Positions 653 to 36,643 of a stretch of 64,000 bases of DNA are shown in pieces. This DNA is from a virus. Taxonomy: Duplodnaviria; Heunggongvirae; Uroviricota; Caudoviricetes. The notes under the pieces are model-generated. The model saw only the letters and a program-made list of their open reading frames with translations. It did no database searches and was not told the DNA's origin. The first letter of the stretch is position 1. Each line of letters begins with the position of its first letter. Both the position numbers and the translations under genes were made by a program. The DNA lies in IMG/VR virus record IMGVR_UViG_3300048598_000131; one strand, given 5' to 3'.

Positions 653-937
653 ATGATATATCCATACTCTGTAAATTTAAGCAATGAACAGCTAGTAAAG
701 CTGTTGAAAGATTTAAAGCACCTTGGAGTTGGCGGGCTACTTTCTGTAAGATTTAAAACAGAGAGCGGGCCAATTGAGGCGTTCACAGGTTATGTCTGGC
801 AACTTGATGCAAAGTATGAGCACGTGGTTCTGACGCAGATAGAAGAGCCCTACGCGTCAAAAGACCTTGTGATTAAGGACATTGTTAGCATTCTGTGGCG
901 TGATCCCCTTGTGTTCAACTGTTCAGGCGGCGAATAA
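653..937 (+). CDS. hypothetical protein
   Basis: 94-aa ORF tightly packed after the NUDIX gene (3-nt gap). No recognisable motif. Confidence 0.45.
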   Translation: MIYPYSVNLSNEQLVKLLKDLKHLGVGGLLSVRFKTESGPIEAFTGYVWQLDAKYEHVVLTQIEEPYASKDLVIKDIVSILWRDPLVFNCSGGE

Positions 938-980
938 ATTAAAAATAAATGTTGACAATGACGTAGATAATGTATACATT
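936..980 (+). promoter_or_regulatory. sigma70-type promoter with conserved A/T-rich upstream element (AAATTAAAAATAAATGTTGACA)
   Basis: TTGACA at 952-957. A TACATT -10-like hexamer follows 17 bp later at 975-980. The upstream AAATTAAAAATAAAT element recurs at at least 9 other sites in the window. The downstream ATGTATACATTT is shared with the 11.9-kb copy. Confidence 0.5.
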
Positions 981-1002
981 TTAGTCCAATAAATCTATTT
1001 TT

Positions 1003-1665
1003 ATGCACGAATACAGTAATCAATCAACTCCGGTAGAGCCTACCGAACAAAAAGTTAAAGCCAAAGCACGTAAGGTGCGCAAAACTGCTAAAGTCAGCAA
1101 AGCGCGGAATGCGTGTAAAGCGCGTAATCGATTGCTTGAGCGCACAAGCCGATTGCTTAAGGACTATGCGCAGTTGAAATCGCCATACTATGCGACTTAC
1201 GGTCCAGGTGTCGTTTATCCGGTGTTTAGTATCGTGAAGGTAGCACGAGATATCGCTACGGCAAAGTACGACAATTCTTTTTATCATGAAACTTGGTCGG
1301 ATCACCGTGCCGGGGTTGCTGCTAATGCACAGTCTGCTGTGAGCGAATTAAACGGTGTATTCACTAAGATAGGTAAGCTATCTCGATCATCGGTGGCTTG
1401 GACACCGCAGCATTCATTGTGTGCAACGGTATGTGTTGATCAAACGAATGTAACAGTGCCCTTATTTGCTGTGCACGTGTGTAATTGCGATGGCATAGAC
1501 GGTATCAAGATCGTGATCGGACCATCTGATCTGGCTGCTGAAGCTAACGCAGATAACGATAAGCCCGTGTTCATTCCTTTTACTAAGACAAACTACAAAG
1601 AGGCAATCAACACATTTCGGTTGTGGTGCACGGCTTATCTGTCTAACCTAATCGTAGTATATTAA
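1003..1665 (+). CDS. hypothetical protein, paralog family A (member 1, divergent)
   Basis: The C-terminus IPFTKTNYKEAINTFRLWCTAYLSNL is homologous to the C-termini of the next two ORFs (VPLLLYYTDNDYKSVLSTFRTWLIKYISNLL). Confidence 0.55.
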   Translation: MHEYSNQSTPVEPTEQKVKAKARKVRKTAKVSKARNACKARNRLLERTSRLLKDYAQLKSPYYATYGPGVVYPVFSIVKVARDIATAKYDNSFYHETWSDHRAGVAANAQSAVSELNGVFTKIGKLSRSSVAWTPQHSLCATVCVDQTNVTVPLFAVHVCNCDGIDGIKIVIGPSDLAAEANADNDKPVFIPFTKTNYKEAINTFRLWCTAYLSNLIVVY

Positions 1666-1668
1666 ATC

Positions 1669-2382
1669 ATGAAAAAATCAACAAAGCACAAAATGAATAA
1701 GTGCAACGGAATAACATCGGTTGAGATAGAGCGCATGCTTGAACTCGAAGGAAAAGCGCTTAAGCACACCATCAGTAAGGCTGAACAAGCTGAGCTTGAT
1801 GCACTCAGGGAAAGTCATCCAGATATTGATGCTAACGGATTGAGTGGGTTATACCTGCTTGGGAATCTTATAACAATAAACGCATTAGCAAATCAGTATG
1901 CAGGAAAACATACTGATGAGCGTCAAGAGCCTAAGAGCGAATGCAATGATGGTGACATATATGCTCAAGCTCAGACACGTGCAGCGGCTCGGAATAGCGC
2001 GGCTAGAGCTGAAGAGAAGGCGAAGGCTACCTGGTATGAGGTTAGGCTGGCTATTCAGCGCTATTTGCGCGATTTGGATGGCAAGTCTAGTAAGATCGGT
2101 AAGTTAGGAGTAGCGTTCGATAACGCACCAGATAATGACGAAATTGCTACGTTATACGCTACAAGTTCATGCGGTGAAGGTTTTACACTGTTCACGGTTG
2201 ATGCTACGCGTAATGCTACGAATGAAGGCTTTAAGGTGAGTGCTGGAAACTCCTCCTTGGCTGTATCTGCGAGCGAATATAGCGCTGTTCCTTTGTTGCT
2301 GTATTATACGGATAATGATTATAAGTCAGTGCTGTCTACTTTTAGAACGTGGCTCATTAAGTATATATCAAATCTTTTGTAA
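1669..2382 (+). CDS. hypothetical protein, paralog family A (member 2)
   Basis: 237 aa. The N-terminus MKKSTKHKMNKCNGITSVEIERMLELEGKALKHTISKAEQAELDAL and the C-terminus VPLLLYYTDNDYKSVLSTFRTWL are shared with 2410..3123. Confidence 0.6.
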   Translation: MKKSTKHKMNKCNGITSVEIERMLELEGKALKHTISKAEQAELDALRESHPDIDANGLSGLYLLGNLITINALANQYAGKHTDERQEPKSECNDGDIYAQAQTRAAARNSAARAEEKAKATWYEVRLAIQRYLRDLDGKSSKIGKLGVAFDNAPDNDEIATLYATSSCGEGFTLFTVDATRNATNEGFKVSAGNSSLAVSASEYSAVPLLLYYTDNDYKSVLSTFRTWLIKYISNLL

Positions 2383-2409
2383 TCCTTTAGCATTTTATTT
2401 TTATAAATT

Positions 2410-3123
2410 ATGAAAAAGCGTAATGAAGCAAACAAGTGTAAAGGTATGACAATGACTGAGGCAGAACGTTGGCTTGATCTCGGAATGAAGGAGCTTAAGC
2501 ATACCATCAGTCAGTCTGAGCAGGCCGAACTTGATGCACTCAATAAAAGCTATCCTAGCGCTGACATCAAAGCATTAAGTGCACTAACCTTATTGGTACG
2601 CACTTTGACTGGGGCTGTAGACACAAAAGTAGCGAGTGACTGTCAGTCTCAAGAGCCTAAGAGCGATGAGTCAAATAGTAGCGTATACTCTGATGCTGTG
2701 CAGCGAGCCGCAGACTTTCGGAAGGTGAAACCGACTAATTACACAGTAGGAAGCGTTGTCGAGCTTAAAGTTAGATCGGCTGTTCAGGACTACTTGAAAG
2801 AGCTGGACAATAAATCTGTTATATTTGATAGGCTTAACAAGCTTAGAACGCTTACACCTGAGAGTAACGTGTCTACGACTGAAATTGCTTCGTTGAAGGC
2901 TACAACTTCGTGCGGTGAAGACATTACTCTGTTTATTGTTACGGCTGTGTGCGCGAATGGTAAACAGGGCATTAAGGTGAATGTCGGGCCTACAGACATA
3001 GCAATAGCTTCAAATAATTACAGCGAAGTTCCGCTATTGTTAGTATATACAGACGATGATTATGCGACAATGCTCAGCACTTTTAGAACTTGGCTGGTAG
3101 ATTATGTCGCACGCTTGCTGTAA
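2410..3123 (+). CDS. hypothetical protein, paralog family A (member 3)
   Basis: 237 aa, same length as 1669..2382. Carries the conserved KCKGMTMTEAERWLDLGMKELKHTISQSEQAELDAL and VPLLLVYTDDDYATMLSTFRTWL blocks. Confidence 0.6.
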   Translation: MKKRNEANKCKGMTMTEAERWLDLGMKELKHTISQSEQAELDALNKSYPSADIKALSALTLLVRTLTGAVDTKVASDCQSQEPKSDESNSSVYSDAVQRAADFRKVKPTNYTVGSVVELKVRSAVQDYLKELDNKSVIFDRLNKLRTLTPESNVSTTEIASLKATTSCGEDITLFIVTAVCANGKQGIKVNVGPTDIAIASNNYSEVPLLLVYTDDDYATMLSTFRTWLVDYVARLL

Positions 3124-3153
3124 CGACCTAATAGCTCTATTACATAAAATAGT

Positions 3154-3381
3154 ATGAATATCGATACATTTAAGCCCCTAGTCATTGAGAGACCTGTGCT
3201 AAAGTCTAAAACCGTCGCTTATGGTAATTTAGCCGCTGGCTGCTTCTTTGAAATAGGTAGCGAAGTATTTATTGCCATGGGCTCTGCTGAGAAGGCTTTT
3301 AGCCTTAAGAGTTTTTCAGTTAAGACTCTGCGTATGGACACGCTAGTTCTTCCACTTCGCGGTAGAGTAGTCATAGACTAA
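3154..3381 (+). CDS. small protein, paralog family B (G-VF...LF-AM...AFSL...LV-PL motif), member 1
   Basis: 75 aa. Shares the motif GCFFEIGSEVFIAMGSAEKAFSLKSF...DTLVLPL with the five downstream ORFs. Confidence 0.55.
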   Translation: MNIDTFKPLVIERPVLKSKTVAYGNLAAGCFFEIGSEVFIAMGSAEKAFSLKSFSVKTLRMDTLVLPLRGRVVID

Positions 3382-3387
3382 AAAGCT

Positions 3388-3630
3388 ATGGATACAAAAT
3401 GCTACGTAGTAAGGCCAGTATCCACCGCACATGATGCAAATAAGAATGAGCGTGTGCCTTATTCTAGCCTATCTCCTGGCGCCGTGTTTGTACTGGATGA
3501 CGAGCTGTTTATGGCCATAGCAACTAGTATGGAGGAGGCCTTTAGTCTTGATTCATATAAAATTAAGGAGATAGGCGGAGATACTTTAGTTATCCCTTTG
3601 CATGATGTAATATTGAGTTTAATAAAATAA
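3388..3630 (+). CDS. small protein, paralog family B, member 2
   Basis: Contains GAVFVLDDELFMAIATSMEEAFSLDSY...DTLVIPL. Confidence 0.55.
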   Translation: MDTKCYVVRPVSTAHDANKNERVPYSSLSPGAVFVLDDELFMAIATSMEEAFSLDSYKIKEIGGDTLVIPLHDVILSLIK

Positions 3631-3635
3631 ACGCT

Positions 3636-3869
3636 ATGAAATCGAATAATAAACCTATGCGAATAAAGCGTGAATCACACGCGTGTAAGGCAATAGCTTA
3701 TGACGTTATAGAGCCTGGATGCGTATTTGAGAGCGAAGGTGAGCTGTTCATAGCTATGTCCACGACTGTTGGTGCGGCTTTTAGTTTAAAGACTTTTGAG
3801 ATTAAGCCAGTGAATTTAGATGTCCTCGTTACACCATTACGCAGTGCAACTTTAACCTTGGTTGATTAA
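3636..3869 (+). CDS. small protein, paralog family B, member 3
   Basis: Contains GCVFESEGELFIAMSTTVGAAFSLKTF...DVLVTPL. Confidence 0.55.
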   Translation: MKSNNKPMRIKRESHACKAIAYDVIEPGCVFESEGELFIAMSTTVGAAFSLKTFEIKPVNLDVLVTPLRSATLTLVD

Positions 3870-3874
3870 GCAGT

Positions 3875-4162
3875 ATGAAATTAAATAAAACAAAATCTAA
3901 GGAGTCAGATACTGAGGAGTTTACACCACTGATTATCACGCGCGAAAAACCGCAGCCCAAGAAGTATGCGTGTAGAACATTACAGGCGGGCACGGTATTC
4001 GAGTTCGAAGAAAATCTATACCTGATAATGTCGAACAAGGATGGACACAATAGTGGTGTCGAATTTCCGGTTTTTTGCCTTAGTACGTGCACCGTTAATT
4101 ACATAAGTTCAGATGCACTTGTGCGTCCAGTGAAGAGCGCAGAATTGACTATAAATTACTAA
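3875..4162 (+). CDS. small protein, paralog family B, member 4
   Basis: Contains GTVFEFEENLYLIMS...ALVRPV. Confidence 0.5.
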   Translation: MKLNKTKSKESDTEEFTPLIITREKPQPKKYACRTLQAGTVFEFEENLYLIMSNKDGHNSGVEFPVFCLSTCTVNYISSDALVRPVKSAELTINY

Positions 4163-4167
4163 GTAAT

Positions 4168-4464
4168 ATGAAAGAACAAGAAAACAACAACAATGAGTCT
4201 AGTTCAGCTGAGCTTAATCAGGCAGGTGCCCCTGAATTTGCACAAATCGCTGTGCACGTTGCCAAGAGAAAGCCTAAGCTAGTGAAGCTTAGGCATCTAG
4301 GCGTTGGTCGTGTGTTTAAATTTGAGGATAAGCTGTATCTATCAGTCGACTACGTGAATAACGATAGTTACGCTTTGCTCTTGGAATCATTTTCTCTGCG
4401 CCATGTAGGTGCAGATTCTCTAGTGCAGCCCTTGTACAATTCGGTGATACTTGCAGAAGACTAG
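4168..4464 (+). CDS. small protein, paralog family B, member 5
   Basis: Contains GRVFKFEDKLYLSV...SFSLRHV..DSLVQPL. Confidence 0.5.
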   Translation: MKEQENNNNESSSAELNQAGAPEFAQIAVHVAKRKPKLVKLRHLGVGRVFKFEDKLYLSVDYVNNDSYALLLESFSLRHVGADSLVQPLYNSVILAED

Positions 4465-4783
4465 CTACAACAGACTAAAAATAGGATATACTATGATGCC
4501 AAATGATACAGCAGAACATGGAGAAATGCCTGCAAGCTTTAGCAGACTCGTTGCCGATAAGTCCGAGCAGTTGTCCGTGCGCTATGTTGAGCGTGAGGCT
4601 GAGGAAGTCCGTTACAGTACCCTGTGTGTAGGACAAGTGTTCAAGTATAAGGGTATACCTTACGTAGCTGCGATCTCGGAAACAGGTTCGGCATTTAACC
4701 TACATGCGTTTAAGATGGATTGCATTGGCCGTGAGGCACTCGTTCGTCCGTTGCACAATCCAGTGCTAAGCGTATCGCGTTAA
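4451..4783 (+). CDS. small protein, paralog family B, member 6
   Basis: Contains GQVFKYKGIPYVAAISETGSAFNLHAF...EALVRPL. The real start may be the ATG at 4493. Confidence 0.5.
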   Translation: MQKTSYNRLKIGYTMMPNDTAEHGEMPASFSRLVADKSEQLSVRYVEREAEEVRYSTLCVGQVFKYKGIPYVAAISETGSAFNLHAFKMDCIGREALVRPLHNPVLSVSR

Positions 4784-4788
4784 TCGGT

Positions 4789-5094
4789 ATGAGAACAAAA
4801 AGTGTTGATCTGGAATTTAAGGTGCATACGCGACGGCTTTTGCAAGAGATTGCTAACCATACAAATCAGCCGACACTGTGTCAGCCTTTGAGTATATTTG
4901 CCTCTATCTTAGTTCAGGTCGCTACCAGGGCCTCTGAGCTGAATGATGACAGGCTGAATGCACTGATGTGCCAGTTGGCGCTCTACGATGTCGCAGATCC
5001 TGATAGCGCGTTATACGACGTAAAGCTAGTTGAATCAATCATTGCTAAAGGAGAAATTCATGAAGACAAAACACAAGACAAAGCTGTCGTCTAA
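4789..5094 (+). CDS. hypothetical protein
   Basis: 101-aa ORF. Its 3' end overlaps the Lar-like ORF that follows. Confidence 0.4.
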   Translation: MRTKSVDLEFKVHTRRLLQEIANHTNQPTLCQPLSIFASILVQVATRASELNDDRLNALMCQLALYDVADPDSALYDVKLVESIIAKGEIHEDKTQDKAVV

Positions 5095-5296: not shown

Positions 5297-5298
5297 CC

Positions 5299-5493: not shown

Positions 5494-5507
5494 TTGAATA
5501 CGCGTAT

Positions 5508-6411: not shown

Positions 6412-6426
6412 TAGGACAAGCCGTAT

Positions 6427-6684: not shown

Positions 6685-6687
6685 TTT

Positions 6688-6957: not shown

Positions 6958-6970
6958 ATATTACTCCGTT

Positions 6971-7387: not shown

Positions 7388-7390
7388 CCA

Positions 7391-7434
7391 AATTAAATAA
7401 ATTTGTTGACGATTGAACTGTTCAATGATAGATT
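7391..7434 (+). promoter_or_regulatory. sigma70-type promoter (AATTAAATAAATTTGTTGACG ... TAGATT)
   Basis: TTGACG at 7406-7411. After a 17-bp spacer, TAGATT at 7429-7434. The predicted TSS falls at about 7441, i.e. at the ATG at 7442. Confidence 0.5.
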
Positions 7435-7441
7435 GTGTACT

Positions 7442-8005
7442 ATGAATATCTCATTGGCCATGTTTGATGATTGCGATGAATCTGAACTCACCGCGATTGA
7501 AGTATCGGCAAAAGCCGAGCTTGAAACGGCTGCTACAGCCGCATGTAAGGATTGGGCGCAGAAAGGCGATTGGGGTGAAAATGGCGCCGTTGTTCATGTG
7601 CATTGGGAAGTTGTTGGTGTGGATGGAAGTACGGCGCACGAGTTGGTCGGGGAATCGGGTGATGTGGATGTTGAAATTGAGCCAGATCATGCGAGCTTAA
7701 TCAGGCGGTGCGGCGGCGCAGATCACAAGACAGAGGATGGTCGATGTGGCTCAGATCCAGCCAGCCATGACTGGACAAGCGCAGGCGAAGATGGGTGCTC
7801 GGACAATCCAGGTGTATTTGCACTCGGAGGCACCAAGATAGAATACAACACGCATTGCCGACGCTGCGGACTGCACCGAAGGATAATTAATCCAGGTGAA
7901 GCTCGGAATCGTGATGATCATGCAGTGTATGAATATCACATGTTGACCGATGACGCAATCTCTCAGCACCGTAATGAGGGCAGCATGGATAGTGATTTAG
8001 ATTAA
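7442..8005 (+). CDS. hypothetical protein (acidic, His/Cys-containing)
   Basis: The ORF-track start at 7403 is a TTG that lies inside the promoter -35 element. The in-frame ATG at 7442 is more plausible and may give a leaderless mRNA. Confidence 0.5.
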   Translation: MNISLAMFDDCDESELTAIEVSAKAELETAATAACKDWAQKGDWGENGAVVHVHWEVVGVDGSTAHELVGESGDVDVEIEPDHASLIRRCGGADHKTEDGRCGSDPASHDWTSAGEDGCSDNPGVFALGGTKIEYNTHCRRCGLHRRIINPGEARNRDDHAVYEYHMLTDDAISQHRNEGSMDSDLD

Positions 8006-8995: not shown

Positions 8996-9326
8996 GCTGC
9001 TTGTTTATTTGTATTTAGCGGTCTCTATCATTTTTGAAATGTGTGGAGATTATTGTGTAAAGATTGCGTCTATAAGCGTAGGTAGTAAATCCAAATTTAT
9101 GTGGATTGTATCGCTCGTAGCTTATAATTTTATGCTTATCGCTTGGATGATTGCAGTAAAGTATGCCAAAGTGATTACGATTCCTGGCACTGTTTGACTT
9201 GTATGCGGTCAGATAGCCGTAATAGTCGTAGGCGTGGGCATACTGCATGAACATGTCACGCTAATACAGCTTGTAGGTCTAGGCTTAGCCGTTGTAGGTT
9301 TGGCACTATTAGGATCAACAAATTAA
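8985..9326 (+). pseudogene. SMR-family (EmrE/SugE-like) small multidrug-resistance transporter interrupted by an in-frame TGA at 9195-9197
   Basis: Residues 1-70 (LAVSIIFEMCGDYCVKIAS ... IPGTV) and the in-frame continuation after the TGA (LVCGQIAVIVVGVGILHEHVTLIQLVGLGLAVVGLALLGSTN) together form a 113-aa, 4-TM protein. Its motifs align with SMR proteins: the TM1 Glu, IP.GTAYA.W.G.GAV, and ILLLGE/LLSLGLIVAG. The stop sits in the same frame. It is a UGA followed by C. Confidence 0.5.
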
Positions 9327-9446
9327 CTTTTATTTTAATTTGATTTAACTTTGTGCCGTGCTATAGTAGCAATGATTTAAGACTAGTCCCGTTTCTTCTA
9401 CTGAGGATTGGCCTTAAAACTTTCATAATAATTAATATAACATATA

Positions 9447-9479
9447 AGCTAGCATAGTTAGAAGCTGTGCTAGCTTTTT
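9447..9479 (+). terminator. hairpin + T-run (intrinsic-terminator-like), repeat copy 1
   Basis: AGCTAGCA tagttagaagctg TGCTAGCT, then TTTT. Confidence 0.5.
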
Positions 9480-9598
9480 AGCGTACGACACGGCTTTAAT
9501 TTGACTTAGCTCTGCGTTGTGATACAGTATCATTGCTTAAGGCTAATCTCAACGCTGTTCGTTGAGGGAGTGGCCTTGAAATTACATATATCATATTT

Positions 9599-9634
9599 AA
9601 GCTAGCATGGTGTAGCAATCATGTTAGCTTTTTA
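9599..9634 (+). terminator. hairpin + T-run, repeat copy 2
   Basis: AAGCTAGCATG gtgtagcaat CATGTTAGCTT, then TTT. One G-U pair in the stem. Confidence 0.5.
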
Positions 9635-9728
9635 GTGTACGACACAAATATAATTTGACATTCACTGCGCTTGCTGTAATTTGTAATCATTAAGACTGCA
9701 AGTCCTCGTTAGTCCTAGGCGATAGTTG

Positions 9729-9762
9729 AGCTAGCATAGATCATAAGCTGTGCTAGCTTTTT
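9729..9762 (+). terminator. hairpin + T-run, repeat copy 3
   Basis: AGCTAGCA tagatcataagctg TGCTAGCT, then TTTT. Confidence 0.5.
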
Positions 9763-9848
9763 AGCGTACGCCTTAGTTTCGATTTGACATTCTGTGCACA
9801 CGTGTTACATTCATTTTACTTTTAAGTAGGCCTGCCGACTAATCCGGT

Positions 9849-9886
9849 AGCTAGCATAGTTATAAGCTGTGCTAGCTTTTTCTTTT
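9849..9886 (+). terminator. hairpin + T-run, repeat copy 4 (immediately 5' of the tRNA)
   Basis: AGCTAGCA tagttataagctg TGCTAGCT, then TTTTCTTTTG. Ends 1 nt before tRNA position 1. Confidence 0.5.
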
Positions 9887-9962
9887 GTCTCTATAGCTCA
9901 AATGGATAGAGCACGAGATTTCTAATCTTGTGATTTTGGTTCGATTCCAAATAGAGACACCA
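9887..9962 (+). tRNA. tRNA-Arg (anticodon UCU), CCA encoded
   Basis: Hand-folded cloverleaf. The acceptor stem GTCTCTA pairs with TAGAGAC. The D-arm is GCTC/GAGC. The anticodon stem CGAGA/TCTTG encloses the loop TTTCTAA, giving anticodon TCT. The T-arm is TTTGG-TTCGATT-CCAAA. ACCA is at the 3' end. Length 76 nt. Confidence 0.9.
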
Positions 9963-9965
9963 TCA

Positions 9966-10010
9966 AATTAAAAATAAATGTTGACTACTGTACAGTCTAT
10001 GCTACTGTGT
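9966..10010 (+). promoter_or_regulatory. sigma70-type promoter motif (AATTAAAAATAAATGTTGACT)
   Basis: TTGACT at 9981-9986 with the conserved upstream element. The -10 is unclear. Confidence 0.4.
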
Positions 10011-11566: not shown

Positions 11567-11599
11567 AAAGCTCGTAGATTGAATCTCTACGAGCTTTTT
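11567..11599 (+). terminator. rho-independent terminator between convergent genes
   Basis: AAAGCTCGTAGA ttgaatc TCTACGAGCTTT followed by TT. A perfect 12-bp stem. Confidence 0.7.
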
Positions 11600-11608: not shown

Positions 11609-11893
11609 CTATAACCTGATTAATTGTTCGAACTCAGGTGTGAGCCGTTTGATCGTGGGCAGGTTAGTGCTTAGGACTTGGGCACAGCGGCGTAGAGACG
11701 ACACAGCTTGGTTCTCGATGCCGGAAAGAAAAGCCAATTTGCATATAGCCGTATAGGCTGCGTTTACCTCGTGCTTTAGAAGGTCTTCACATCCAAGTGC
11801 TTTGAACATTTCCACTTCTTTCGGTGAAAATTCTGGGTAAGTTTCGTCTCTCAGTTGTTGATTTTGGGCTGTTGAATTCATGTCGTCTACCAT
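11609..11893 (-). CDS. hypothetical protein (one of only 6 minus-strand genes called)
   Basis: 94-aa ORF convergent with the upstream plus-strand block. Divergent from the promoter region at 11.9 kb. Confidence 0.5.
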   Translation of the reverse strand: MVDDMNSTAQNQQLRDETYPEFSPKEVEMFKALGCEDLLKHEVNAAYTAICKLAFLSGIENQAVSSLRRCAQVLSTNLPTIKRLTPEFEQLIRL

Positions 11894-11915
11894 ATCTTAA
11901 AATGTATACAAGTCA

Positions 11916-11969
11916 AATTAAAAATAATTGTTTACATTTGAAAATCGTGTGCTACGTTATGTATACATT
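11916..11969 (+). promoter_or_regulatory. sigma70-type promoter motif (AAATTAAAAATAATTGTTTACA ... ATGTATACATTT)
   Basis: TTTACA at 11931-11936 with the conserved upstream element. The downstream ATGTATACATTT block is identical to the one after the 952 promoter. Confidence 0.4.
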
Positions 11970-12953: not shown

Positions 12954-13823
12954 ATGAAAGACACATTATTTGAACCTGTAGTCGGAATACCAAAGTCATT
13001 TGAACAGTATGCAGAGAAGTTAAAGGGCGAAGATGATTCAAAATCATGCTTTCTTACTTTAGTCTCTGGTGCGAAAGAGCCAGAAGTCTGTAGCTGGGCA
13101 CATGACATGATGAATATGTACAAAGCTTGGTTTGAGAGCCTGGGCATGAAGTGTATTGTGCTGCATACAGCGTGCCTTGATGGTAAGCCAGAGCTTATCG
13201 CACGTGCGACGTTGCTGATAGTGGGTAACTATGCTTATGGCATTGGCAAGTGTGAGACGGGCATTCATCGGTGTAGTCGCTGGACGAAATTTAAGCCGAC
13301 GGCTATGCTGTGTACATGCTTTGTCTCAGTAGAGGTTTTACCGTTTGACGCTATAAGCGTTAAAGACTACGAAGCTGAGTTATTCTATTCTGTAGGTTTC
13401 GACTTTTTGGCTGGATCGTCTACGACGATTATTACTGCGATGCGTGAAGGAGCCGAAGCGAGTGTTACACTTACACCTGCTACTGAAATTAGCGTGATCG
13501 GGGCTTGCGTTAAAAATGACATAGCTGTTCCTAAGACAGAATATAAAGAGTCGGATGTTGCTACAGTTAAGGGAGGCAACTTAGAATCGGATATTATGGT
13601 TGCTATGGTCAAGCACCTGCTTGCCGCGAGATTGAACAACGGAGCGTTTAGCATAGCGTGGGGTAACATTATTCGCAGCTATGTGTTTGCGCCGTATACG
13701 GCGATAAAGGACAGCCGTAATGGCTATGAGACGGCTAACGTGAACGGAGTAGTGAACGGCGATTTAAACGAGTTAGTTGCCTTGTGGTTTGAGCACGGTT
13801 GTCCTAATACCTGCTCAGCATAG
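12954..13823 (+). CDS. hypothetical protein
   Basis: 289-aa ORF with good coding look. No motif recognised. Confidence 0.55.
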   Translation: MKDTLFEPVVGIPKSFEQYAEKLKGEDDSKSCFLTLVSGAKEPEVCSWAHDMMNMYKAWFESLGMKCIVLHTACLDGKPELIARATLLIVGNYAYGIGKCETGIHRCSRWTKFKPTAMLCTCFVSVEVLPFDAISVKDYEAELFYSVGFDFLAGSSTTIITAMREGAEASVTLTPATEISVIGACVKNDIAVPKTEYKESDVATVKGGNLESDIMVAMVKHLLAARLNNGAFSIAWGNIIRSYVFAPYTAIKDSRNGYETANVNGVVNGDLNELVALWFEHGCPNTCSA

Positions 13824-13831: not shown

Positions 13832-13877
13832 AAATTAAAATTTAATGTTGACATTTAAATAGGATGCACTATATTAA
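13832..13877 (+). promoter_or_regulatory. sigma70-type promoter (AAATTAAAATTTAATGTTGACA ... ATATTA)
   Basis: TTGACA at 13848-13853. After a 17-bp spacer, ATATTA at 13871-13876. The predicted TSS falls at about 13883, which coincides with the ATG (possible leaderless transcript). Confidence 0.5.
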
Positions 13878-13882
13878 ATAGT

Positions 13883-14314
13883 ATGAACATTGTTTTGGAC
13901 ATTACAGTAGTCGATGTTGAACGATCGGGGAGTGTGCTCGAAGCGATTAGGCGTAACATATATTACTCGAACAATCTGTACGAAGGGCAGGTTGGCTCGT
14001 CAAAGATGACGACGTTTACAGGTAAGGTCGTAAATCGCACTGTAGACGACTACGCTGAGACAGCACTGATTGACTTGGATGCTGATGCTTATATCGACGT
14101 AGAGAGTGGCAGGGCGGCTTATCTGGATGAGGATAAGCGCGTTCAATGGACGCCTAAGAGCCGAGTTTGCCTAGTACCCCCGGACTACACGCAAATAGCT
14201 CAGTATCCGGCTTCAACAGCCAAGATGATTGAGGCGCTGAATGTTCATGTAGATTGTAGCGATTTGGTAAGATGGAAAGAAATCAGTGAAACAATTGAAA
14301 ACAAAAATCGATAA
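13883..14314 (+). CDS. hypothetical protein
   Basis: 143-aa ORF. Confidence 0.5.
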   Translation: MNIVLDITVVDVERSGSVLEAIRRNIYYSNNLYEGQVGSSKMTTFTGKVVNRTVDDYAETALIDLDADAYIDVESGRAAYLDEDKRVQWTPKSRVCLVPPDYTQIAQYPASTAKMIEALNVHVDCSDLVRWKEISETIENKNR

Positions 14315-15664: not shown

Positions 15665-15667
15665 AGA

Positions 15668-15711
15668 TATTTAAATTTAATGTTGACTTTCGGTACACGT
15701 GCATTATCTTA
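15668..15711 (+). promoter_or_regulatory. sigma70-type promoter motif (TTAAATTTAATGTTGACT)
   Basis: TTGACT at 15683-15688. A TATCTT-like -10 lies 16-17 bp downstream. Confidence 0.45.
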
Positions 15712-16158: not shown

Positions 16159-16159
16159 T

Positions 16160-16658
16160 GTCTAGCCCTGCTTGCCAGTTTGTTGTGGCGATGGATTGGC
16201 AAGAGCACGCATGCAGAAACATCCCAATGCTGTATGCGTGCATCCTTTCTTGGCTGAACTTGCGATGATTCAGCCAAGATAATATGACACCTGCGCGTAA
16301 TCAGGTTACTCAGTTATTCGCAGGCGTAGTTTAGCAGCGTTGCTGATGTTTAGGATTTGTACATCAGTTGATACGCGCTGACTAAGCCAGTAGTCTTACG
16401 CTGCTGGCTTCATCAATTTGCTGCGGTTTCAGCCTGTGCTCATATGCCGGTGGTCTTCCGGCAACTGAGATCGCAGCGACTATTTTGTGATAGGTCAGTA
16501 GTGTATTATGGTTAATGGTTGGAACTATTAGCTGTGTGCACGCATAGGCAGTATTGGCCTATCACGCTAATTTAGCAGGTTGGTTCGTAGAATAGGGCAC
16601 TGATTGGTGGTAGGTGCTGAAGTGGGGATGACCAACCTGCTATTAAATTTTACTGCGT
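16160..16658. other. about 500-bp ORF-free, GC-richer, hairpin-dense region (candidate structured ncRNA / cis element)
   Basis: No ORF of at least 60 aa on either strand. Multiple inverted repeats: CTTGCCA..TGGCAAG, GGCTGAA..TTCAGCC, GCCAG..CTGGC, and AGCAGGTTGGT..GACCAACCTGCT (11 bp). Confidence 0.35.
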
Positions 16659-22214: not shown

Positions 22215-22232
22215 TTTTTAAAACTATGAAGT

Positions 22233-22256
22233 CTGAGTAGTGTACTCAGGCTTTTT
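22233..22256 (+). terminator. rho-independent terminator
   Basis: CTGAGTA gtg TACTCAG, then GCTTTTT. Confidence 0.6.
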
Positions 22257-25298: not shown

Positions 25299-25300
25299 AT

Positions 25301-28314: not shown

Positions 28315-28360
28315 TTTATACTAACCGTATAAGGCTTACATCTGATTTTAGCGCGGAAGT

Positions 28361-28400
28361 AAAATTAAATGTTTACAATGGCTAAAATCAAGTGTAAGCT
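28361..28400 (+). promoter_or_regulatory. sigma70-type promoter motif (AAAATTAAATGTTTACA ... TAAGCT)
   Basis: TTTACA at 28372-28377 and TAAGCT at 28395-28400 (17-bp spacer). Confidence 0.4.
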
Positions 28401-30058: not shown

Positions 30059-30173
30059 ATGTAGCTACACTTAAAATAATTAAAAAATAATGTAGACAGT
30101 TAATCAAAAGTGTGCAATAGGTTATTAAGTGTTAGATTTATACTAACTTAAAATTAACTTAAAACAAAGTACC

Positions 30174-30419
30174 ATGGCTAAAAATACAAAAAATAAAACG
30201 GTCCGCTCTGCCGGACAAAAACTGATCAGTATCCCTGTGTCGGATGATTTCATGTACGCAGTGGATGAAGGCCTGCCAAAAGTTGGGTTCGCTTCGCGTT
30301 CAGAGATGATTCGCATGGCGATCATCAAGCTTTACGAAGCAAATGGGATCAAAATTGATCCCAGCTTGGCTATGCCACCGTCTCGTGTAGGCAAAGGTGG
30401 CCGTCCTCCCAAAAAGTAA
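30174..30419 (+). CDS. ribbon-helix-helix (CopG/Arc-like) DNA-binding protein with basic C-terminal tail
   Basis: ISIPVSDDFMYAVDE....GFASRSEMIRMAIIKLYE gives the beta-strand, helix and helix pattern of RHH. Ends GKGGRPPKK. Preceded by the AATTAAAAAATAATGTAGACA promoter-like motif at 30078-30098. Confidence 0.55.
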   Translation: MAKNTKNKTVRSAGQKLISIPVSDDFMYAVDEGLPKVGFASRSEMIRMAIIKLYEANGIKIDPSLAMPPSRVGKGGRPPKK

Positions 30420-31532: not shown

Positions 31533-31544
31533 TCTGTACAAATT

Positions 31545-32471: not shown

Positions 32472-32476
32472 CACGT

Positions 32477-32510
32477 AATCCCTTGGGCTAATTCGGCTCA
32501 AGGGATTTTT
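32477..32510 (+). terminator. rho-independent terminator after the HflKC-like pair
   Basis: AATCCCTTG ggctaattcggct CAAGGGATT, then TTT. Confidence 0.7.
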
Positions 32511-32550
32511 AAATATTTTTGTTTACTTTTAGCTAAAAGTCTGTAGATTA
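32511..32550 (+). promoter_or_regulatory. sigma70-type promoter (ATATTTTTGTTTACT ... TAGATT)
   Basis: TTTACT at 32522-32527 and TAGATT at 32544-32549. Confidence 0.4.
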
Positions 32551-32555
32551 CTGTT

Positions 32556-32834
32556 ATGCAAGAAAAAGTCTATATCACCTACGATGCTTTAACAAAGGGC
32601 ATAGTTTGCGCAAATGCCGAAGTGTGCGGTAGCAATCACGAAGACATTTCTGTGCACATACCATATTCTCTTTATGTAAAGTATTACAAAAAAGGAGATT
32701 GGTTTCGCACGAAGGAGGAGGCCGTAGCTAGAGCCGAAGCAATGCGCAAAAAGCGAATAGCTTTGATTAACCGGCAGTTGGAAAAGTTGTCTAAGCTGGA
32801 TTACAACGTGATCTGTGATCGCACAGTTTCTTAA
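32556..32834 (+). CDS. small protein, paralog family D (member 1)
   Basis: MQEKVYITYDALTKGIVCANAEV...WFRTKEEAVARAEAMRKKRIALINRQLEKLSKL. Confidence 0.55.
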   Translation: MQEKVYITYDALTKGIVCANAEVCGSNHEDISVHIPYSLYVKYYKKGDWFRTKEEAVARAEAMRKKRIALINRQLEKLSKLDYNVICDRTVS

Positions 32835-32875
32835 TCACTTTTGTGCATGCTTAAATAACTTAGAAAGTTTAATCT

Positions 32876-33136
32876 ATGAAAGAAAAATTTTATGTCACGA
32901 ACTATGCCCTAACAAAGGGAATATTGTGTATGACAGGTGAGGTAGACGCTAGCAGACAAGATGTGCTTATTTCGGGTTTTCAATTTTTTCACAAAAATGA
33001 GTGGTTTCGAACGAAGGAGGAGGCTGTAGCTAGAGTTGAAGCTATGCGTCAGGAGAAGATTGAGTCCATTAATCGGCAATTGGCTAAGTTGACTAAAATG
33101 GATGTTACAAAGGTTACAGACACTACTACAGACTAG
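32876..33136 (+). CDS. small protein, paralog family D (member 2)
   Basis: MKEKFYVTNYALTKGILCMTGEV...WFRTKEEAVARVEAMRQEKIESINRQLAKLTKM. Confidence 0.55.
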   Translation: MKEKFYVTNYALTKGILCMTGEVDASRQDVLISGFQFFHKNEWFRTKEEAVARVEAMRQEKIESINRQLAKLTKMDVTKVTDTTTD

Positions 33137-33155
33137 ATACTTATAAATTAGTGCT

Positions 33156-33413
33156 ATGCAAGAAAAAGTTTACATCACGAAGTACGCGCTGACTAAAGGC
33201 ATTTATCATTTATCTGCGGAAATTGATGGAAAGTATGCGCATGCTACATTGCCGGGGGCGCACTTTCCTTCGGTGTTTTCTGCTAGCGAGTGGACTCGTT
33301 CGAAAATAGACGCTGAAGATAGGGCCACTGATATGCGCTGCAAGAAAATTAAGGCTTTAGAAAGAAAAGCAGCTGTGTTAGTTAGGATAAATACAAAAAT
33401 TGTGGAGATTTAA
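33156..33413 (+). CDS. small protein, paralog family D (member 3)
   Basis: MQEKVYITKYALTKGIYHLSAEI... Confidence 0.5.
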   Translation: MQEKVYITKYALTKGIYHLSAEIDGKYAHATLPGAHFPSVFSASEWTRSKIDAEDRATDMRCKKIKALERKAAVLVRINTKIVEI

Positions 33414-33415
33414 TT

Positions 33416-33694
33416 ATGGAAAAACAAATTTATGGAGAGCGTAAAGGCTATTGGCACACACGGTGCCATACGGATGATCACGGGCATGATATCGCGTGCC
33501 GGATCATGACGCCTGATAACGGAGCTATCTACGCTAAAACTGAGGCTGACGCAATCTGGCTTTGCCATCAGCTTAACACACTTACAACTCAAGTTGAATC
33601 TCTTACAGCTTGTTGTAAGATTTTGGACGCTAAAGTGAAGGAATGTTCTAGGCAACCACATCATGAGCAAGAATCAGACATTATTTACAAATAA
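33416..33694 (+). CDS. hypothetical His/Cys-rich small protein
   Basis: 92-aa ORF. Confidence 0.4.
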   Translation: MEKQIYGERKGYWHTRCHTDDHGHDIACRIMTPDNGAIYAKTEADAIWLCHQLNTLTTQVESLTACCKILDAKVKECSRQPHHEQESDIIYK

Positions 33695-33706
33695 TGTCTA
33701 AAGCAT

Positions 33707-34036
33707 ATGAGAGTTACCAGCGATGAAGCTAAGTTTGCAGTGCTTGGATATCTTACCGGAGGTAGTGGCATGTTCGAACGTAAATTATCTAAAGAAGATT
33801 TGTCTGAAAGTGAAGATTTACTTCGTGAGATACTGCGCGAGTTACAGCATATTTCACGGTGCGTAGAGGCATGCGCAAAGAACAATTTAGCCACAGCAGA
33901 AGAGGTGGAAAGTGTAAAGAACTTGATAGTCGCGGACATGACGTATCGAAACGTTCCTCTGGTGGTCTACACTGAAATTCCTGAAAGCTTAAGAAATGTT
34001 AAAATAGACGAGAGTAAAGATCGCATTGACATCTAA
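33707..34036 (+). CDS. hypothetical protein
   Basis: 109-aa ORF. Confidence 0.45.
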   Translation: MRVTSDEAKFAVLGYLTGGSGMFERKLSKEDLSESEDLLREILRELQHISRCVEACAKNNLATAEEVESVKNLIVADMTYRNVPLVVYTEIPESLRNVKIDESKDRIDI

Positions 34037-34140
34037 GATAAGTCTTAGCCTCATGAATTTTAAATATTCATACGCGGTATTTGAGCTATTCATAATCATA
34101 CTCGCGTTGCTGGTTATAGCCCAGCTTACAATTTTATACT

Positions 34141-34494
34141 ATGACATTATTAAATAGTTATACAGATGGAAAGAAACAAGTAACAGCATACATTGTAAAA
34201 GATGCAGTAAACACAGGAATTATATGCGCTACAGGGTGCGTGTATAAAAGGTCTCCGCATACCCTATACGCCGTGGTCAACGGACGAGAATGTGTGTATA
34301 AACAGAGTGAGTGGGACTATTCAAAAGAAGAAGCAGAGAAGAAAGCCTTGCGTTTAAAAACTGATTATCTTCTGAAAGGCCAGAAGATATTAACCACGAA
34401 ACTAGGCCATCTTGTTCGGCTCCAGCAAGAGATCGACGCATTTAAACGGCAACTAAAAACTGTGGAAGATCGGCCTCTATACGCCGCATCCTAA
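34141..34494 (+). CDS. small protein, paralog family D (member 4, divergent)
   Basis: TAYIVKDAVNTGIICATGCV...SEWDYSKEEAEKKALRLK follows the same YxTxxALTKGIxC...W..(S/T)KEEA pattern. Confidence 0.5.
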   Translation: MTLLNSYTDGKKQVTAYIVKDAVNTGIICATGCVYKRSPHTLYAVVNGRECVYKQSEWDYSKEEAEKKALRLKTDYLLKGQKILTTKLGHLVRLQQEIDAFKRQLKTVEDRPLYAAS

Positions 34495-34683
34495 ATATAT
34501 ATTATGTCAGCTACATCTTACTATTTGGCGCTGGGCGTAGTTGCTCTATGTAATTTTTTACTCATAGTCGTGCTTTTGTGCAATCGGCCTCGTAGCGACG
34601 AAGAAATGCTAAGACCGAATAAGCCTGCGCCTAAAGCGGATGATGCCGATTACTGCCGTGATCGTGTAGATTCTATTTGAAAT

Positions 34684-35028
34684 ATGGCCTACGTGCTATC
34701 AGATGACTACTACAATCTCAATAAGGGACAACCTATTGAGATTGTTTCATTTAAGGCATCAATAGATGAAGCTTGGGCATTATTTAATCGGAGATTGTTC
34801 AAGCTTCCAATGTCTATGCTTAGGCATAGACCTGATGTTGGAGAGAGCGTTCTTGTGCACAATAGAGATAGGATTTTGGAACGTTTACCCGTAGTAGCCG
34901 TATTAGATAGTCAGTATTTAATTAAATCTGGATTATCTGTCTATCGCGCCTACGACGTTCTGAATTATGGGCACGAATACTGGGCAGAGAAAAGCCTGCC
35001 TAGTCATTGGAAAGAATTGCTATGCTAA
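34684..35028 (+). CDS. hypothetical protein
   Basis: 114-aa ORF. Confidence 0.5.
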   Translation: MAYVLSDDYYNLNKGQPIEIVSFKASIDEAWALFNRRLFKLPMSMLRHRPDVGESVLVHNRDRILERLPVVAVLDSQYLIKSGLSVYRAYDVLNYGHEYWAEKSLPSHWKELLC

Positions 35029-35309
35029 AGATCGATAATGTGCACACTGATGATGCAGGTAGGTTAGTCGTGAACTATATTGTTAGTCATTCTACTCCTG
35101 GAAGAGAAGGTACAACTGTGTCTGAACCAATGACACTAACCTGTGCTAATAGAGGCAGCGGCGAATGGACGTGCAGCATGAAAATAGAAGACGCTACTGG
35201 TGATACGCCGCAAGCTGTATTGCTCAAGCTTCAATCTTGGCTTGAGCGCTTAAGCATTGCGCTAAAAGATAGCGAGAAGGCTACTGTGACACTGCCAGGT
35301 AGATTTTAG
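35007..35309 (+). CDS. hypothetical protein
   Basis: 100-aa ORF. Confidence 0.45.
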   Translation: MERIAMLKIDNVHTDDAGRLVVNYIVSHSTPGREGTTVSEPMTLTCANRGSGEWTCSMKIEDATGDTPQAVLLKLQSWLERLSIALKDSEKATVTLPGRF

Positions 35310-36439
35310 GCCTTGATGACGTCAATCTTGAGTGTTTTGTCTGCCTTTTCGACACTTAATTCATACTTTGTTCCACTGAGTGTGCAGCCAATAGCAGTGA
35401 GCAATCCTGTGATTTCAGCGATCTTTTCAGCGCTTTGAACTAAGCAATCATAGTGGCCGTAGGGTGAATCATAGTCATCGCTTACTTTGTAGTAATGAAG
35501 CATGTCACCCTTAATCGCAACATTGCCTACCTCAGTGACAGTTATGCTCTTATTACTGACAGAGCGTGCGCGAATGGTAATCTCAGGATTATCAAGTTTA
35601 CCCTCTGTGAATCCAGTGATTGGTCGGGCAAGGAGCAGAGTTAACTTCAAAATTAATCCATTTTTTGCTTCTAAAGCCTTTTCAGCTTCTGTCGGCTGAA
35701 TTGCGATACCAATCCATTCAAATCGATATCCAGGCTTTTCGTTGAAAGCGTCCAGATCATCAATAGCATCGGCAGACAGATAGTATTCAGCGGTATGGCG
35801 TAGCTGGACGTAGTTGATATCTTTAACCCTGTGAGTAGAACCATCGGGCATCTCTTTGCTCTTGCAAACAAAGCGCTTGATGGGGCAGTCTGGACGTATC
35901 TTGTAGCCGTATTTTTGAGCCTCCGTAGCTGCCATTTCAACCGTCATCTCAGGCATGCTCGCCGCAGCAGGTAATTTAGGTGCAGCTTGTTTCGGCGCAG
36001 CCTGCTGGTTTACGATGGCATTGGCTTTAGCAGCTGTCTCAGCGTCAGGAGCCATCCAGCACTTGTTATCCGAATTCCAGCGGCATCCAAGGGCTTTCAG
36101 CCTGTCTTTCACAGGATAGGTATTTCCGGTGATCGGTACCTGCTGTGCACGCTTTTGTGCGAATGCTGCGTCAGCAGCTGTGGCCGCATCAAGATCTGCT
36201 TGATTTGGATTGCTTAAGCCAGCAATCAGTTGTCGAATAGACCGGTCCCCAGTGACAGTCCATCGAGGATCATTTTCGCCGTTGCCTGATCTAGCCCAAA
36301 ATTTTCCACCATGCTTTTTGATGATTTCTCGATACTTACGCGTATCACCTCTGATTACAGCAGTAGGCCTGGTGTAATCAGTTAAAATTTTCACAACTAA
36401 TTCTGCCGGTAATTTCTGTGTTTTATATTCGGCGCTCAT
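35306..36439 (-). CDS. hypothetical protein (377 aa), minus strand
   Basis: Long minus-strand ORF. Its own conserved promoter motif lies upstream on the minus strand. Confidence 0.6.
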   Translation of the reverse strand: MSAEYKTQKLPAELVVKILTDYTRPTAVIRGDTRKYREIIKKHGGKFWARSGNGENDPRWTVTGDRSIRQLIAGLSNPNQADLDAATAADAAFAQKRAQQVPITGNTYPVKDRLKALGCRWNSDNKCWMAPDAETAAKANAIVNQQAAPKQAAPKLPAAASMPEMTVEMAATEAQKYGYKIRPDCPIKRFVCKSKEMPDGSTHRVKDINYVQLRHTAEYYLSADAIDDLDAFNEKPGYRFEWIGIAIQPTEAEKALEAKNGLILKLTLLLARPITGFTEGKLDNPEITIRARSVSNKSITVTEVGNVAIKGDMLHYYKVSDDYDSPYGHYDCLVQSAEKIAEITGLLTAIGCTLSGTKYELSVEKADKTLKIDVIKA

Positions 36440-36444
36440 GTTTG

Positions 36445-36485
36445 TACTATGGCATACTTTAACTATTCGTCAACATTAAATTTTA
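36445..36485 (-). promoter_or_regulatory. sigma70-type promoter on minus strand (reverse complement of AAAATAAAATTTAATGTTGACG)
   Basis: On the plus strand, GTCAACATTAAATTTTATTTT at 36468-36489. Drives the minus-strand gene that starts at 36439. Confidence 0.45.
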
Positions 36486-36571
36486 TTTTGTTTTGTAAGT
36501 TGACAAATAGGCTATGAGTTGTAGGTTAAACGCTGTTAATTCCATAGTTGTTTTAGTTGTTTAATCGTGTA

Positions 36572-36600
36572 AACAGCGTACTATTTAGTACGCTGTTTTT
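36572..36600 (+). terminator. rho-independent terminator-like hairpin
   Basis: AACAGCGTAC tattta GTACGCTGTT, then TTT. Confidence 0.5.
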
Positions 36601-36604
36601 GTTA

Positions 36605-36643
36605 AAATTAAAAGTTGACATAGCGCTATTAAGCTTTTAATTT
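36605..36643 (+). promoter_or_regulatory. sigma70-type promoter (AAAATTAAAAGTTGACA ... TAATTT)
   Basis: TTGACA at 36615-36620 and TAATTT at 36638-36643 (17-bp spacer). Confidence 0.45.

Follow-up and report, generated by a model that had tools for sequence, protein, structure and literature searches.

A putative family of UP-like, sigma70-type promoters with predicted leaderless starts in a metagenomic tailed-phage contig

We analysed 64,000 nt (hereafter the window) of a 99,354-bp JGI/IMG metagenome contig, which is recorded in IMG/VR as IMGVR_UViG_3300048598_000131 and assigned to the Caudoviricetes. The left 40 kb of the window carries twelve copies of a motif in which a conserved A/T-rich block runs directly into a sigma70-type -35 hexamer. 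We conclude, with a probability of about 0.78, that the twelve sites are functional promoters composed of upstream (UP), -35, (TG) and -10 elements, and that they are likely read by the host primary sigma70/sigmaA RNA polymerase holoenzyme right after genome entry. For a phage that otherwise resists annotation, the family supplies a ready map of transcription across the left 40 kb. It is a known phage strategy in a new genome and not a new mechanism, and it leaves the current understanding of transcription unchanged.

The extended motif and its placement

A first-pass annotation of the DNA had listed eleven copies of an A/T-rich element fused to a consensus -35. All eleven are real: each was found in the sequence, the copies align without gaps, and their earlier coordinates were correct to 1-11 nt, depending on which base is taken as the first of the block. 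The family consensus is AAATTAAAAwTwAATG followed by TTGAC (a 22-nt consensus). The first-pass annotation had proposed a motif search, which we ran over the window with a weight matrix built from the sites. The search recovered the known copies and found a twelfth, with its -35 at 39469. Leave-one-out scores of the sites ranged from 10.9 to 32 bits, and the best scores in 100 Markov shuffles used as the control had a mean of 10.7 bits and a maximum of 17.5 bits. The twelfth site scored 16.4 bits, just below the top shuffle score. Between 40 and 64 kb there were merely two further scores, 12.8 and 13.4 bits, both sub-threshold and inside the shuffle range, and a control genome, that of the 143-kb Pseudanabaena phage Pam2, contains a single site above 12 bits. 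A generic TTGACA/TATAAT scan showed no enrichment over shuffles (50 versus 43, 49 versus 50, and 39 versus 43). Thus, the extended motif carries the signal, as had been claimed. Within the first 41 kb, 12-mers that occur at least three times come either from the promoter family or from terminator hairpins that form their own family at 9.4-9.9 kb, the exceptions being two stray words, AAAGCACCTTGG and ACTATGCTAGCT.

Members of the family are listed below. Each range on the plus strand opens with the 16-nt A/T block; on the minus strand, the block runs from 36489 to 36474. Values in bits are weight-matrix scores.

Promoter 1, 936-980 (+): block 936-951, -35 TTGACA 952-957, 17-nt spacer, -10 TACATT 975-980; 33.4 bits; palindrome AATGTATACATT (969-980) over the -10; next ATG 1003, leader about 16 nt
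Promoter 2, 7390-7444 (+): -35 TTGACG 7406-7411, TGn, -10 TAGATT 7429-7434; 25.4 bits; 15-bp palindrome ATTGAACtGTTCAAT (7412-7426) in the spacer; ATG 7442, 7 nt past the -10
Promoter 3, 9965-10008 (+): immediately 3' of tRNA-Arg; -35 TTGACT 9981-9986, TGc and -10 TACTGT 10003-10008; 33.2 bits; spacer palindrome ACTGTACAGT (9987-9996); next ATG 10071
Promoter 4, 11915-11968 (+): -35 TTTACA 11931-11936, TGc and -10 TACGTT 11953-11958; 31.0 bits; palindrome ATGTATACAT (11959-11968) over the predicted start site; next ATG 11979
Promoter 5, 13832-13885 (+): -35 TTGACA 13848-13853, -10 TATATT 13870-13875; 32.9 bits, 11/12 consensus matches; ATG 13883, 7 nt past the -10
Promoter 6, 15667-15710 (+): -35 TTGACT 15683-15688, -10 TATCTT 15705-15710; 27.2 bits; ATG 15724, leader about 7 nt
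Promoter 7, 28356-28400 (+): -35 TTTACA 28372-28377, -10 TAAGCT 28395-28400; 26.3 bits; ATG 28434
Promoter 8, 30077-30123 (+), variant: -35 TAGACA 30093-30098; 26.1 bits; -10 uncertain, either TAGGTT (19-nt spacer) or TGc-AATAGG (17-nt spacer); next ATG 30174
Promoter 9, 32506-32558 (+), variant with a T-rich upstream block: -35 TTTACT 32522-32527, -10 TAGATT 32544-32549; 18.7 bits (10.9 leave-one-out); 14-bp palindrome CTTTTAGCTAAAAG (32526-32539); ATG 32556, 6 nt past the -10
Promoter 10, 36437-36489 (-): -35 TTGACG 36473-36468, TGc and -10 CATAGT 36451-36446; 29.6 bits; ATG 36439, 6 nt past the -10
Promoter 11, 36599-36651 (+): -35 TTGACA 36615-36620, -10 TAATTT 36638-36643; 24.8 bits; palindrome ATAGCGCTAT (36620-36629); ATG 36649, 5 nt past the -10; terminator hairpin 36571-36598 just upstream
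Promoter 12, 39453-39496 (+), outside the range of the first-pass annotation: -35 TTGACT 39469-39474, -10 TATAAA 39491-39496; ATG 39520, then thymidylate synthase

The block from -51 to -36 contains 18.9 bits of information, the -35 hexamer 8.9 bits and the -10 hexamer 5.3 bits. G occupies -36 at all twelve sites, TG at -37/-36 is nearly invariant, and A predominates at -46 to -42. The -35 hexamer begins with TTGAC at eight sites, TTTAC at three and TAGAC at one. Conservation ends abruptly at -51; the distal part is not conserved, and its AT content at -65 to -52 varies between 36 and 79%. Spacers and flanks are unrelated among the copies, with only the functional blocks conserved. This element-specific conservation indicates selection on function, not recent duplication.

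The window holds about 97 tightly packed, phage-like genes, nearly all of them on the plus strand, and only 6.5% of it is intergenic. All twelve family sites fall in this intergenic DNA and all twelve are co-oriented with the next gene. A TAnnnT element lies 16-17 nt past the first hexamer at nine of the twelve sites, compared to 22 of 459 (4.8%) other TTGAC, TTTAC or TAGAC sites in the window that served as controls (binomial P = 2.6e-10), and TG is found within 5 nt upstream of the -10 at eleven sites. Because TAnnnT at a fixed distance of 16-17 bp is the signature of a sigma70-family holoenzyme, this finding speaks against both a simple protein-binding repeat and a promoter for a single-subunit RNA polymerase. 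The conserved, A/T-rich stretch from -51 to -37 covers the position of the proximal UP subsite, which has been placed at -45 to -37 (PMC2613000). These sequence tests support the first-pass reading of the copies as sigma70-type promoters with an UP-like element; they have a two-block structure, are intergenic and oriented with genes, and possess a -10 at the correct spacing. We infer that sigma region 4 would contact the G-TTGAC block and sigma region 2 the TAnnTT element 16-17 bp downstream, while one alpha C-terminal domain would bind the A-tract at about -46 to -38. Together, the sigma and alpha contacts would let the phage promoters out-compete those of the host.

The family precedes blocks of small orphan genes, an RF2-like gene and the thymidylate synthase gene, and has no member in the part of the window with the fibre, glycosyltransferase and holin genes. 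This distribution fits an early or pre-replicative class. The earlier suggestion that the copies partition the region into transcription units holds for three of the twelve, which have a terminator shortly upstream: promoter 3 (-35 at 9981; hairpin 9849-9877 plus the tRNA), promoter 11 (36615; hairpin 36571-36598) and promoter 4 (11931; hairpin 11567-11597, across a divergent gene). The remaining sites lie 0-45 nt past the upstream stop codon and have no hairpin. Clear intrinsic terminators are found at 11567-11597, 22229-22253, 36571-36598 and 39015-39047, in addition to those of a candidate small-RNA array described below. Because most sites have no terminator upstream, nested read-through transcripts are more likely, and the promoters would boost transcription into such RNA, much like those of T4 early regions, instead of delimiting units. 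The 22-nt consensus could be used for finding relatives, for seeking strong promoters of the host itself after a host has been proposed, and for building expression parts.

Predicted leaderless starts and palindromes

At five family members, the first ATG follows the -10 by only 5-7 nt: 7 nt for the starts at 7442 and 13883, 6 nt for those at 32556 and 36439 (-), and 5 nt for 36649. Leaderless mRNAs had been proposed for the first two, and the 7-nt gap noted there is correct; the prediction that some mRNAs are leaderless stands, with the count rising from two to five. Under a model in which gaps are uniform over 0-60 nt, the probability of 5-7 nt gaps at five of twelve sites is approximately 1.7e-4. 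The first T of the -10 lies 13 nt (7442), 13 nt (13883), 12 nt (32556), 12 nt (36439, -) and 11 nt (36649) ahead of the ATG. In the "TA-led" signature of leaderless genes, TAnnnT starts about 12 nt ahead of the AUG and there is no Shine-Dalgarno (SD) sequence (PMC3160421); all five family starts have this spacing. Transcription from these members would start on the A of the first ATG or one base away from it, and the ribosome would then translate their first cistrons without a leader.

Four of the five starts agree with independent IMG gene calls. In the gene at 32556, no further in-frame Met appears until residue 63 of 92, and in the gene at 36439 not until approximately residue 129 of 377; because these codons are so far downstream, the start-site ATG is the only plausible start for either gene. 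The strongest candidate is 36439 (-), the first gene on its strand with no other promoter in view, so that its predicted mRNA would be leaderless by necessity. The candidates on the plus strand could also be translated from read-through RNA. The divergent start at 11881 (-), which lies behind a weaker promoter, is a sixth candidate. The start at 36649 opens a reading frame that IMG does not call:

36649-36804 (+): uncalled 51-aa Cys-rich open reading frame (CxxC...CxC..CxxC), opening 5 nt past the -10 of promoter 11 (36615)

This frame stops 1 nt ahead of the called gene at 36806, a junction style that is typical of this genome.

We detected no use of SD sequences, as SD-like words precede 13% of starts compared to a 16% background at random positions. 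Leaderless first cistrons fit a genome of this kind. Position -1 is T (U in the mRNA) in 75% of genes, and position +4 is A in 63%. The sequence UAUGA can pair with positions 33-37 in the anticodon loop of the initiator tRNA. In cyanobacteria, among other groups, a pyrimidine has been noted right before the start codon (PMC3160421). In 22 of the 97 genes, a TAnnnT runs straight into the ATG; judged by eye, most of these consist of the stop codon of the preceding gene plus 3 nt ending in T. The combination of strong promoters, leaderless first cistrons and no SD would make this phage a compact, testable case of immediate translation in SD-independent hosts. The freshwater viral contig L014 (IMGVR_UViG_3300005758_000578) has the same start-codon context as the window: SD sequences are absent, and 71% of its genes have U at -1. 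Its phage may have a host of a similar kind.

Another word, GTAGTTA, occurs seven times in 64 kb versus 13 expected, and six copies (24724, 28844, 41090, 47106, 61497 (-) and 61945) lie in sense orientation 2-5 nt ahead of start codons. Informative family matches are available for four of the six genes, which are virion-structural-like, collagen-like fibre, holin-like and DnaJ-like. GTAGTTA cannot be the -10 for these starts because it is too close to the ATG; it may mark late genes or act as a signal in translation or processing. GTAGTTA and the promoter family are consistent with two gene classes.

We also scored inverted repeats in the -35 to +5 interval, counting those with perfect 5-7 bp arms separated by no more than 1 nt. 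Such palindromes are present in six of the twelve family promoters versus 13.7% of control windows (P = 0.003). They are AT-rich, and their RNA folding energies lie between -0.8 and -6.2 kcal/mol. With energies this weak and loops of 0-1 nt, we rejected terminators and attenuators; operators for dimeric repressors are the better guess. The palindromes probably act as operators through which phage repressors would later shut down individual promoters.

The first-pass annotation had pointed out that promoters 1 and 4 share a downstream word, ATGTATACATTT, which is indeed present at 970 and 11959. The 64 kb contain just two exact copies of the perfect palindrome ATGTATACAT, each within a family promoter. 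Its offsets differ, with the copy at 970 over the -10 and the copy at 11959 over the start site, and a third copy with one mismatch is found at 11902 (11902-11911) in the spacer of a divergent promoter. Judging from its placement, ATGTATACAT is a separate, operator-like element outside the promoter consensus. The divergent promoter is as follows:

11879-11916 (-): weaker divergent promoter, non-family (T at -36); -35 TTGACT 11916-11911, -10 TATGGT 11894-11889; near-palindrome TTGTATACAT in the spacer; ATG 11881 7 nt past the -10, 90-aa product (the IMG start is ATG 11893, not 11881)

Two of the three promoters that bear ATGTATACAT flank the divergent orphan gene at 11609-11893 (-), which encodes 90-94 aa. 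The gene and the ATGTATACAT sites together resemble a self-regulating repressor and the operators that it would bind. Pfam and PDB sequence searches found no DNA-binding domain in the small proteins beside palindromes. The 81-aa product of 30174-30419 (+), which lies behind the variant promoter 8 (30093), resembles a ribbon-helix-helix protein by eye only (ISIPVSDDFMYAVDE...SRSEMIRMAIIKL), and neither the Pfam nor the PDB sequence search supported this assignment.

Alternative readings and known systems

Several observations weigh against host-read early promoters. The -10 is the weak element of the family, three sites have no clean TAnnnT (CATAGT, TATAAA and one with a 19-bp spacer), and TG stands in the strict TGn register at only four of the twelve sites (7406, 9981, 11931 and 36473). 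Virion-protein-like genes at 24.7-28.2 kb lie downstream of promoter 6 (15683), so the "early" label is not clean. Searches of phage, viral and metagenome sequences found no relative for phylogenetic footprinting. Genomes without SD sequences are known in Bacteroidota and some cyanobacteria, and in Bacteroidota, the primary sigma factor recognises a consensus other than TTGACA/TATAAT (PMC6847099). The absence of SD thus points to Bacteroidota or some cyanobacteria as host, and if the host belonged to Bacteroidota, its RNA polymerase would not read the family sites and a phage factor would be required. Other hints to the host conflict: ThyA matches of 65-71% identity come from many phyla, mostly Bacteroidales; the tRNA-Arg is closest to crAss-like phage tRNAs (about 80%); and the tail protein is closest to that of a Pseudanabaena phage, which is a cyanophage. 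Finally, a phage sigma factor or RNA polymerase could be encoded in the other ~35 kb of the contig; we saw no gene for either among the open reading frames scanned in the 64-kb window.

One alternative is that the promoters are read by a phage sigma70-family factor or by phage-modified host RNA polymerase. The 16-nt block with TG at -37/-36 would then be the recognition site of that factor, and the class could be middle instead of immediate-early. The 18.9 bits of the block go beyond what a generic UP element needs and its TG is nearly invariant, the lack of SD together with some gene affinities is compatible with a Bacteroidota host whose sigma would not read TTGACA/TAnnnT, and large phages do encode sigma factors, as seen with Pam2 gp08 and contig L023; the 35 kb outside the window could supply one. 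We nevertheless consider a phage factor unlikely. The scanned frames contain no such gene, both hexamers fit the primary sigma consensus, and T4-type phages have the same G-36 and A-rich extension with unmodified or Alt-modified host RNA polymerase. Moreover, some host-read promoters are needed to start, and no other candidate class lies ahead of the orphan-gene blocks. The 22-nt block is also about as long as the promoters of T7, SP6 or Syn5-type phages and is more conserved than the -10, as would be expected if a T7-like single-subunit phage RNA polymerase started just past TTGAC and the -10 were incidental. That model leaves the TAnnnT at 16-17 nt in nine of twelve sites unexplained, makes the 5-7 nt spacing to ATG at five sites a coincidence and is at odds with a 3' end of the block that is the sigma70 -35 consensus; with no RNA polymerase gene seen in the window either, we regard it as very improbable.

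The repeats might instead be chiefly recombination cassettes or duplication remnants that shuffle orphan genes, with promoter activity secondary or lost in many copies. The layout is indeed like that of the promoter-early stem-loop (PeSL) cassettes of RB49/phi1, with a stop codon in or beside the A/T block, a promoter, an inverted repeat and a start codon (PMC2839356); the sites flank orphan genes, and palindromes are enriched as given above. However, those palindromes are no terminators by their composition, loops and folding energies, the copies are identical over only 15-21 nt, which is short for homologous exchange, and no related genome was found that shows indels at the sites. Shuffling would in any case be a role additional to promoter function and not an alternative to it, and as the chief explanation it is highly unlikely. 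A more sweeping proposal is that host ribosomes ignore SD sequences and that phage take-over is built on leaderless first cistrons, U(-1)AUG A(+4) internal starts, a factor-docking block and repressor-timed promoters. In such a scheme, U(-1)AUG A(+4) would extend pairing with initiator tRNA for internal cistrons, the 16-nt block would dock a virion-delivered alpha modifier of the Alt kind or a phage sigma to make transcription phage-exclusive, and the differing spacer palindromes would be operators of several phage repressors. We consider this full combination unlikely.

Returning to promoters read by the host holoenzyme, the best-described counterparts are the early promoters of T4-type phages. 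Their consensus has GTTTAC at -36 to -31 (GTTGAC in RB49, RB43 and Aeh1), an A-rich stretch at -40 to -44, and T-12, A-11 and T-7 (PMC1524935), and they have been described as an "uber" UP/-35/TGn/-10 class (PMC2988021). The family shares with the promoters of T4, RB49, RB43, Aeh1 and 44RR the composite UP/-35/(TG)/-10 structure, G-36 followed by TTTAC or TTGAC, A-rich sequence at about -40 to -46, and a -10 with T-12, A-11 and T-7. In both cases, many copies precede small orphan genes and lie beside tRNA genes, with few terminators between copies. In contrast to the T4-type promoters, the A/T block is longer and more sequence-specific (the 16-nt consensus above), strict TGn is found in just four of twelve copies, there is no SD past the promoters, and five copies put the ATG at the start site. 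Scans of about 70 window open reading frames with PHROG and Pfam found no T4-like family. With no T4-like gene or DNA similarity, the family would work like a T4-type early promoter in a phage that is not in that group, and the "uber-promoter" strategy would recur in an unrelated lineage.

PeSL cassettes have been described in RB49/phi1, T4/PST and KVP40/nt-1 (PMC2839356, PMC4122927), and their layout includes a stem-loop between -35 and -10 (PMC2839356). Like these cassettes, the family sites are intergenic and associated with orphan genes, with an upstream stop codon in an AT-rich stretch, a near-consensus sigma70 promoter, an inverted repeat that either sits between -35 and -10 or overlaps the -10, and a downstream start codon. 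Unlike PeSLs, they have loopless, AT-rich inverted repeats that are too weak for termination, and no SD element. The A/T block lies directly upstream of the -35 with its A-tract over the proximal subsite, as in the UP elements of E. coli rrnB P1 and further strong promoters (PMC2613000), but conservation stops at -51 and the distal subsite is not conserved.

The lambda cI mRNA from PRM is leaderless. The five predicted leaderless starts resemble cI/PRM and the "TA-led" genes of Actinobacteria and Deinococcus (PMC3160421) in having TAnnnT with its first T about 12 nt before the start, no SD, and ATG in place of GTG or TTG as the start codon. They differ from both in that the leaderless feature is tied to one promoter family and in that the leadered genes of the phage also have no SD. 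A Bacteroidota-type promoter was considered and rejected: the sigmaABfr promoter has -33 TTTG and -7 TAnnTTTG, with T-8, T-7, T-6 and G-5 nearly invariant (PMC6847099), whereas positions 5-8 of the downstream element read TTTG in none of the family sites, TACATTTT at 975 coming closest.

Gene neighbourhood and non-coding RNA candidates

Among the genes of the window, those with recognisable products include a holin-like gene and the following.

12954-13823 (+): RF2-like 289-aa protein with a PCRF domain and about 31% identity to bacterial RF2 (TIGR00020 match at E = 2e-34, well short of the family cut-off)
39711-40505: thymidylate synthase (ThyA)
41099-57011 (+): collagen-repeat proteins of 798, 375 and 2727 aa, and a 350-aa protein with a weak collagen-repeat match
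57023-61003 (+): 1326-aa fusion of GT9-like, GT2, methyltransferase and DXD-sugar-binding glycosyltransferase domains
61956-63635 (+): 559-aa protein with a DnaJ-type CXXCXGXG zinc-finger domain, adjoining the 1326-aa fusion

The RF2-like protein has no RF-1 domain match on record, and we saw neither a GGQ nor an SPF motif in it. Despite this gene, we rejected stop-codon recoding because all three stop codons are used in the window (TAA 57, TAG 29 and TGA 11). The 2727-aa protein has a Peptidase_S74 intramolecular chaperone domain at its C-terminal end, and the collagen-repeat proteins look like very long tail fibres. Their collagen-like repeats dominate any repeat search of the window.

Relatives of the phage are scarce. 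All window proteins that were looked up in a collection of 15 billion sequences form singleton clusters from one contig, and megablast gave no match for the window among 50,697 deposited phage records. Two protein searches of deposited phages produced a single cultured-phage homologue, a tail-module protein of Pseudanabaena phage Pam2 with 41% identity; this 952-aa protein and ThyA are all that Pam2 has in common with the window. With the 952-aa protein as query, viral and metagenome contigs yielded only 29-53% identical matches (38-46% for full-length ones), and the matched contigs share just a two-gene module with the window and carry no promoter-family sites. In the freshwater viral contigs L014, L013 and L017, this shared module consists of a 187-aa and a 952-aa tail-like gene product. 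Searches with the 377-aa, 289-aa and 187-aa proteins identified no usable relatives. The promoter patterns AAATTAAAANTNAATGTTGAC and TTAATGTTGAC-N16/17-TANNNT gave only single, unrelated matches per contig across the collection, and none of the fetched loci carries a promoter family like that of the window.

Non-coding stretches of the window hold several structured segments. The segment at 16159-16658 is 500 nt without an open reading frame and folds into about ten consecutive strong hairpins (-209.9 kcal/mol versus -163 +/- 6.9 for shuffles, z = -6.8). Rfam searches of the non-coding stretches, including this one, matched tRNA only.

A candidate phage small-RNA array occupies 9325-9886 (+), where four tandem mini transcription units each have their own promoter and a body that varies between units (65-110 nt), whereas the terminator hairpin (AGCTAGCATAG..CTGTGCTAGCT then TTTTT) is nearly the same in all. 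The array promoters are of a different class (T at -36, no long A/T block), with AATTTGAC, a 16-nt spacer and TAnnnT:

9340-9367 (+): promoter of array unit 1
9501-9528 (+): promoter of array unit 2
9655-9682 (+): promoter of array unit 3
9784-9811 (+): promoter of array unit 4

TG lies just upstream of the -10 in these promoters and was flagged by the scan in three of the four. The bodies of units 1 and 2 fold into a 5' hairpin around TTAAGnCT, and fold z-scores across the array range from -2.2 to -5.5. The array has no Rfam match and no similar array was found among deposited phages; tRNA-Arg(TCT) comes next, at 9887-9962.

At 36500-36605 (+), a promoter with G-TTGACA, a 16-nt spacer and TAGGTT is followed about 40 nt on by the strong terminator hairpin at 36571-36598. 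This segment is a candidate for a small RNA of about 70 nt (fold z = -3.8) encoded between two divergent family promoters.

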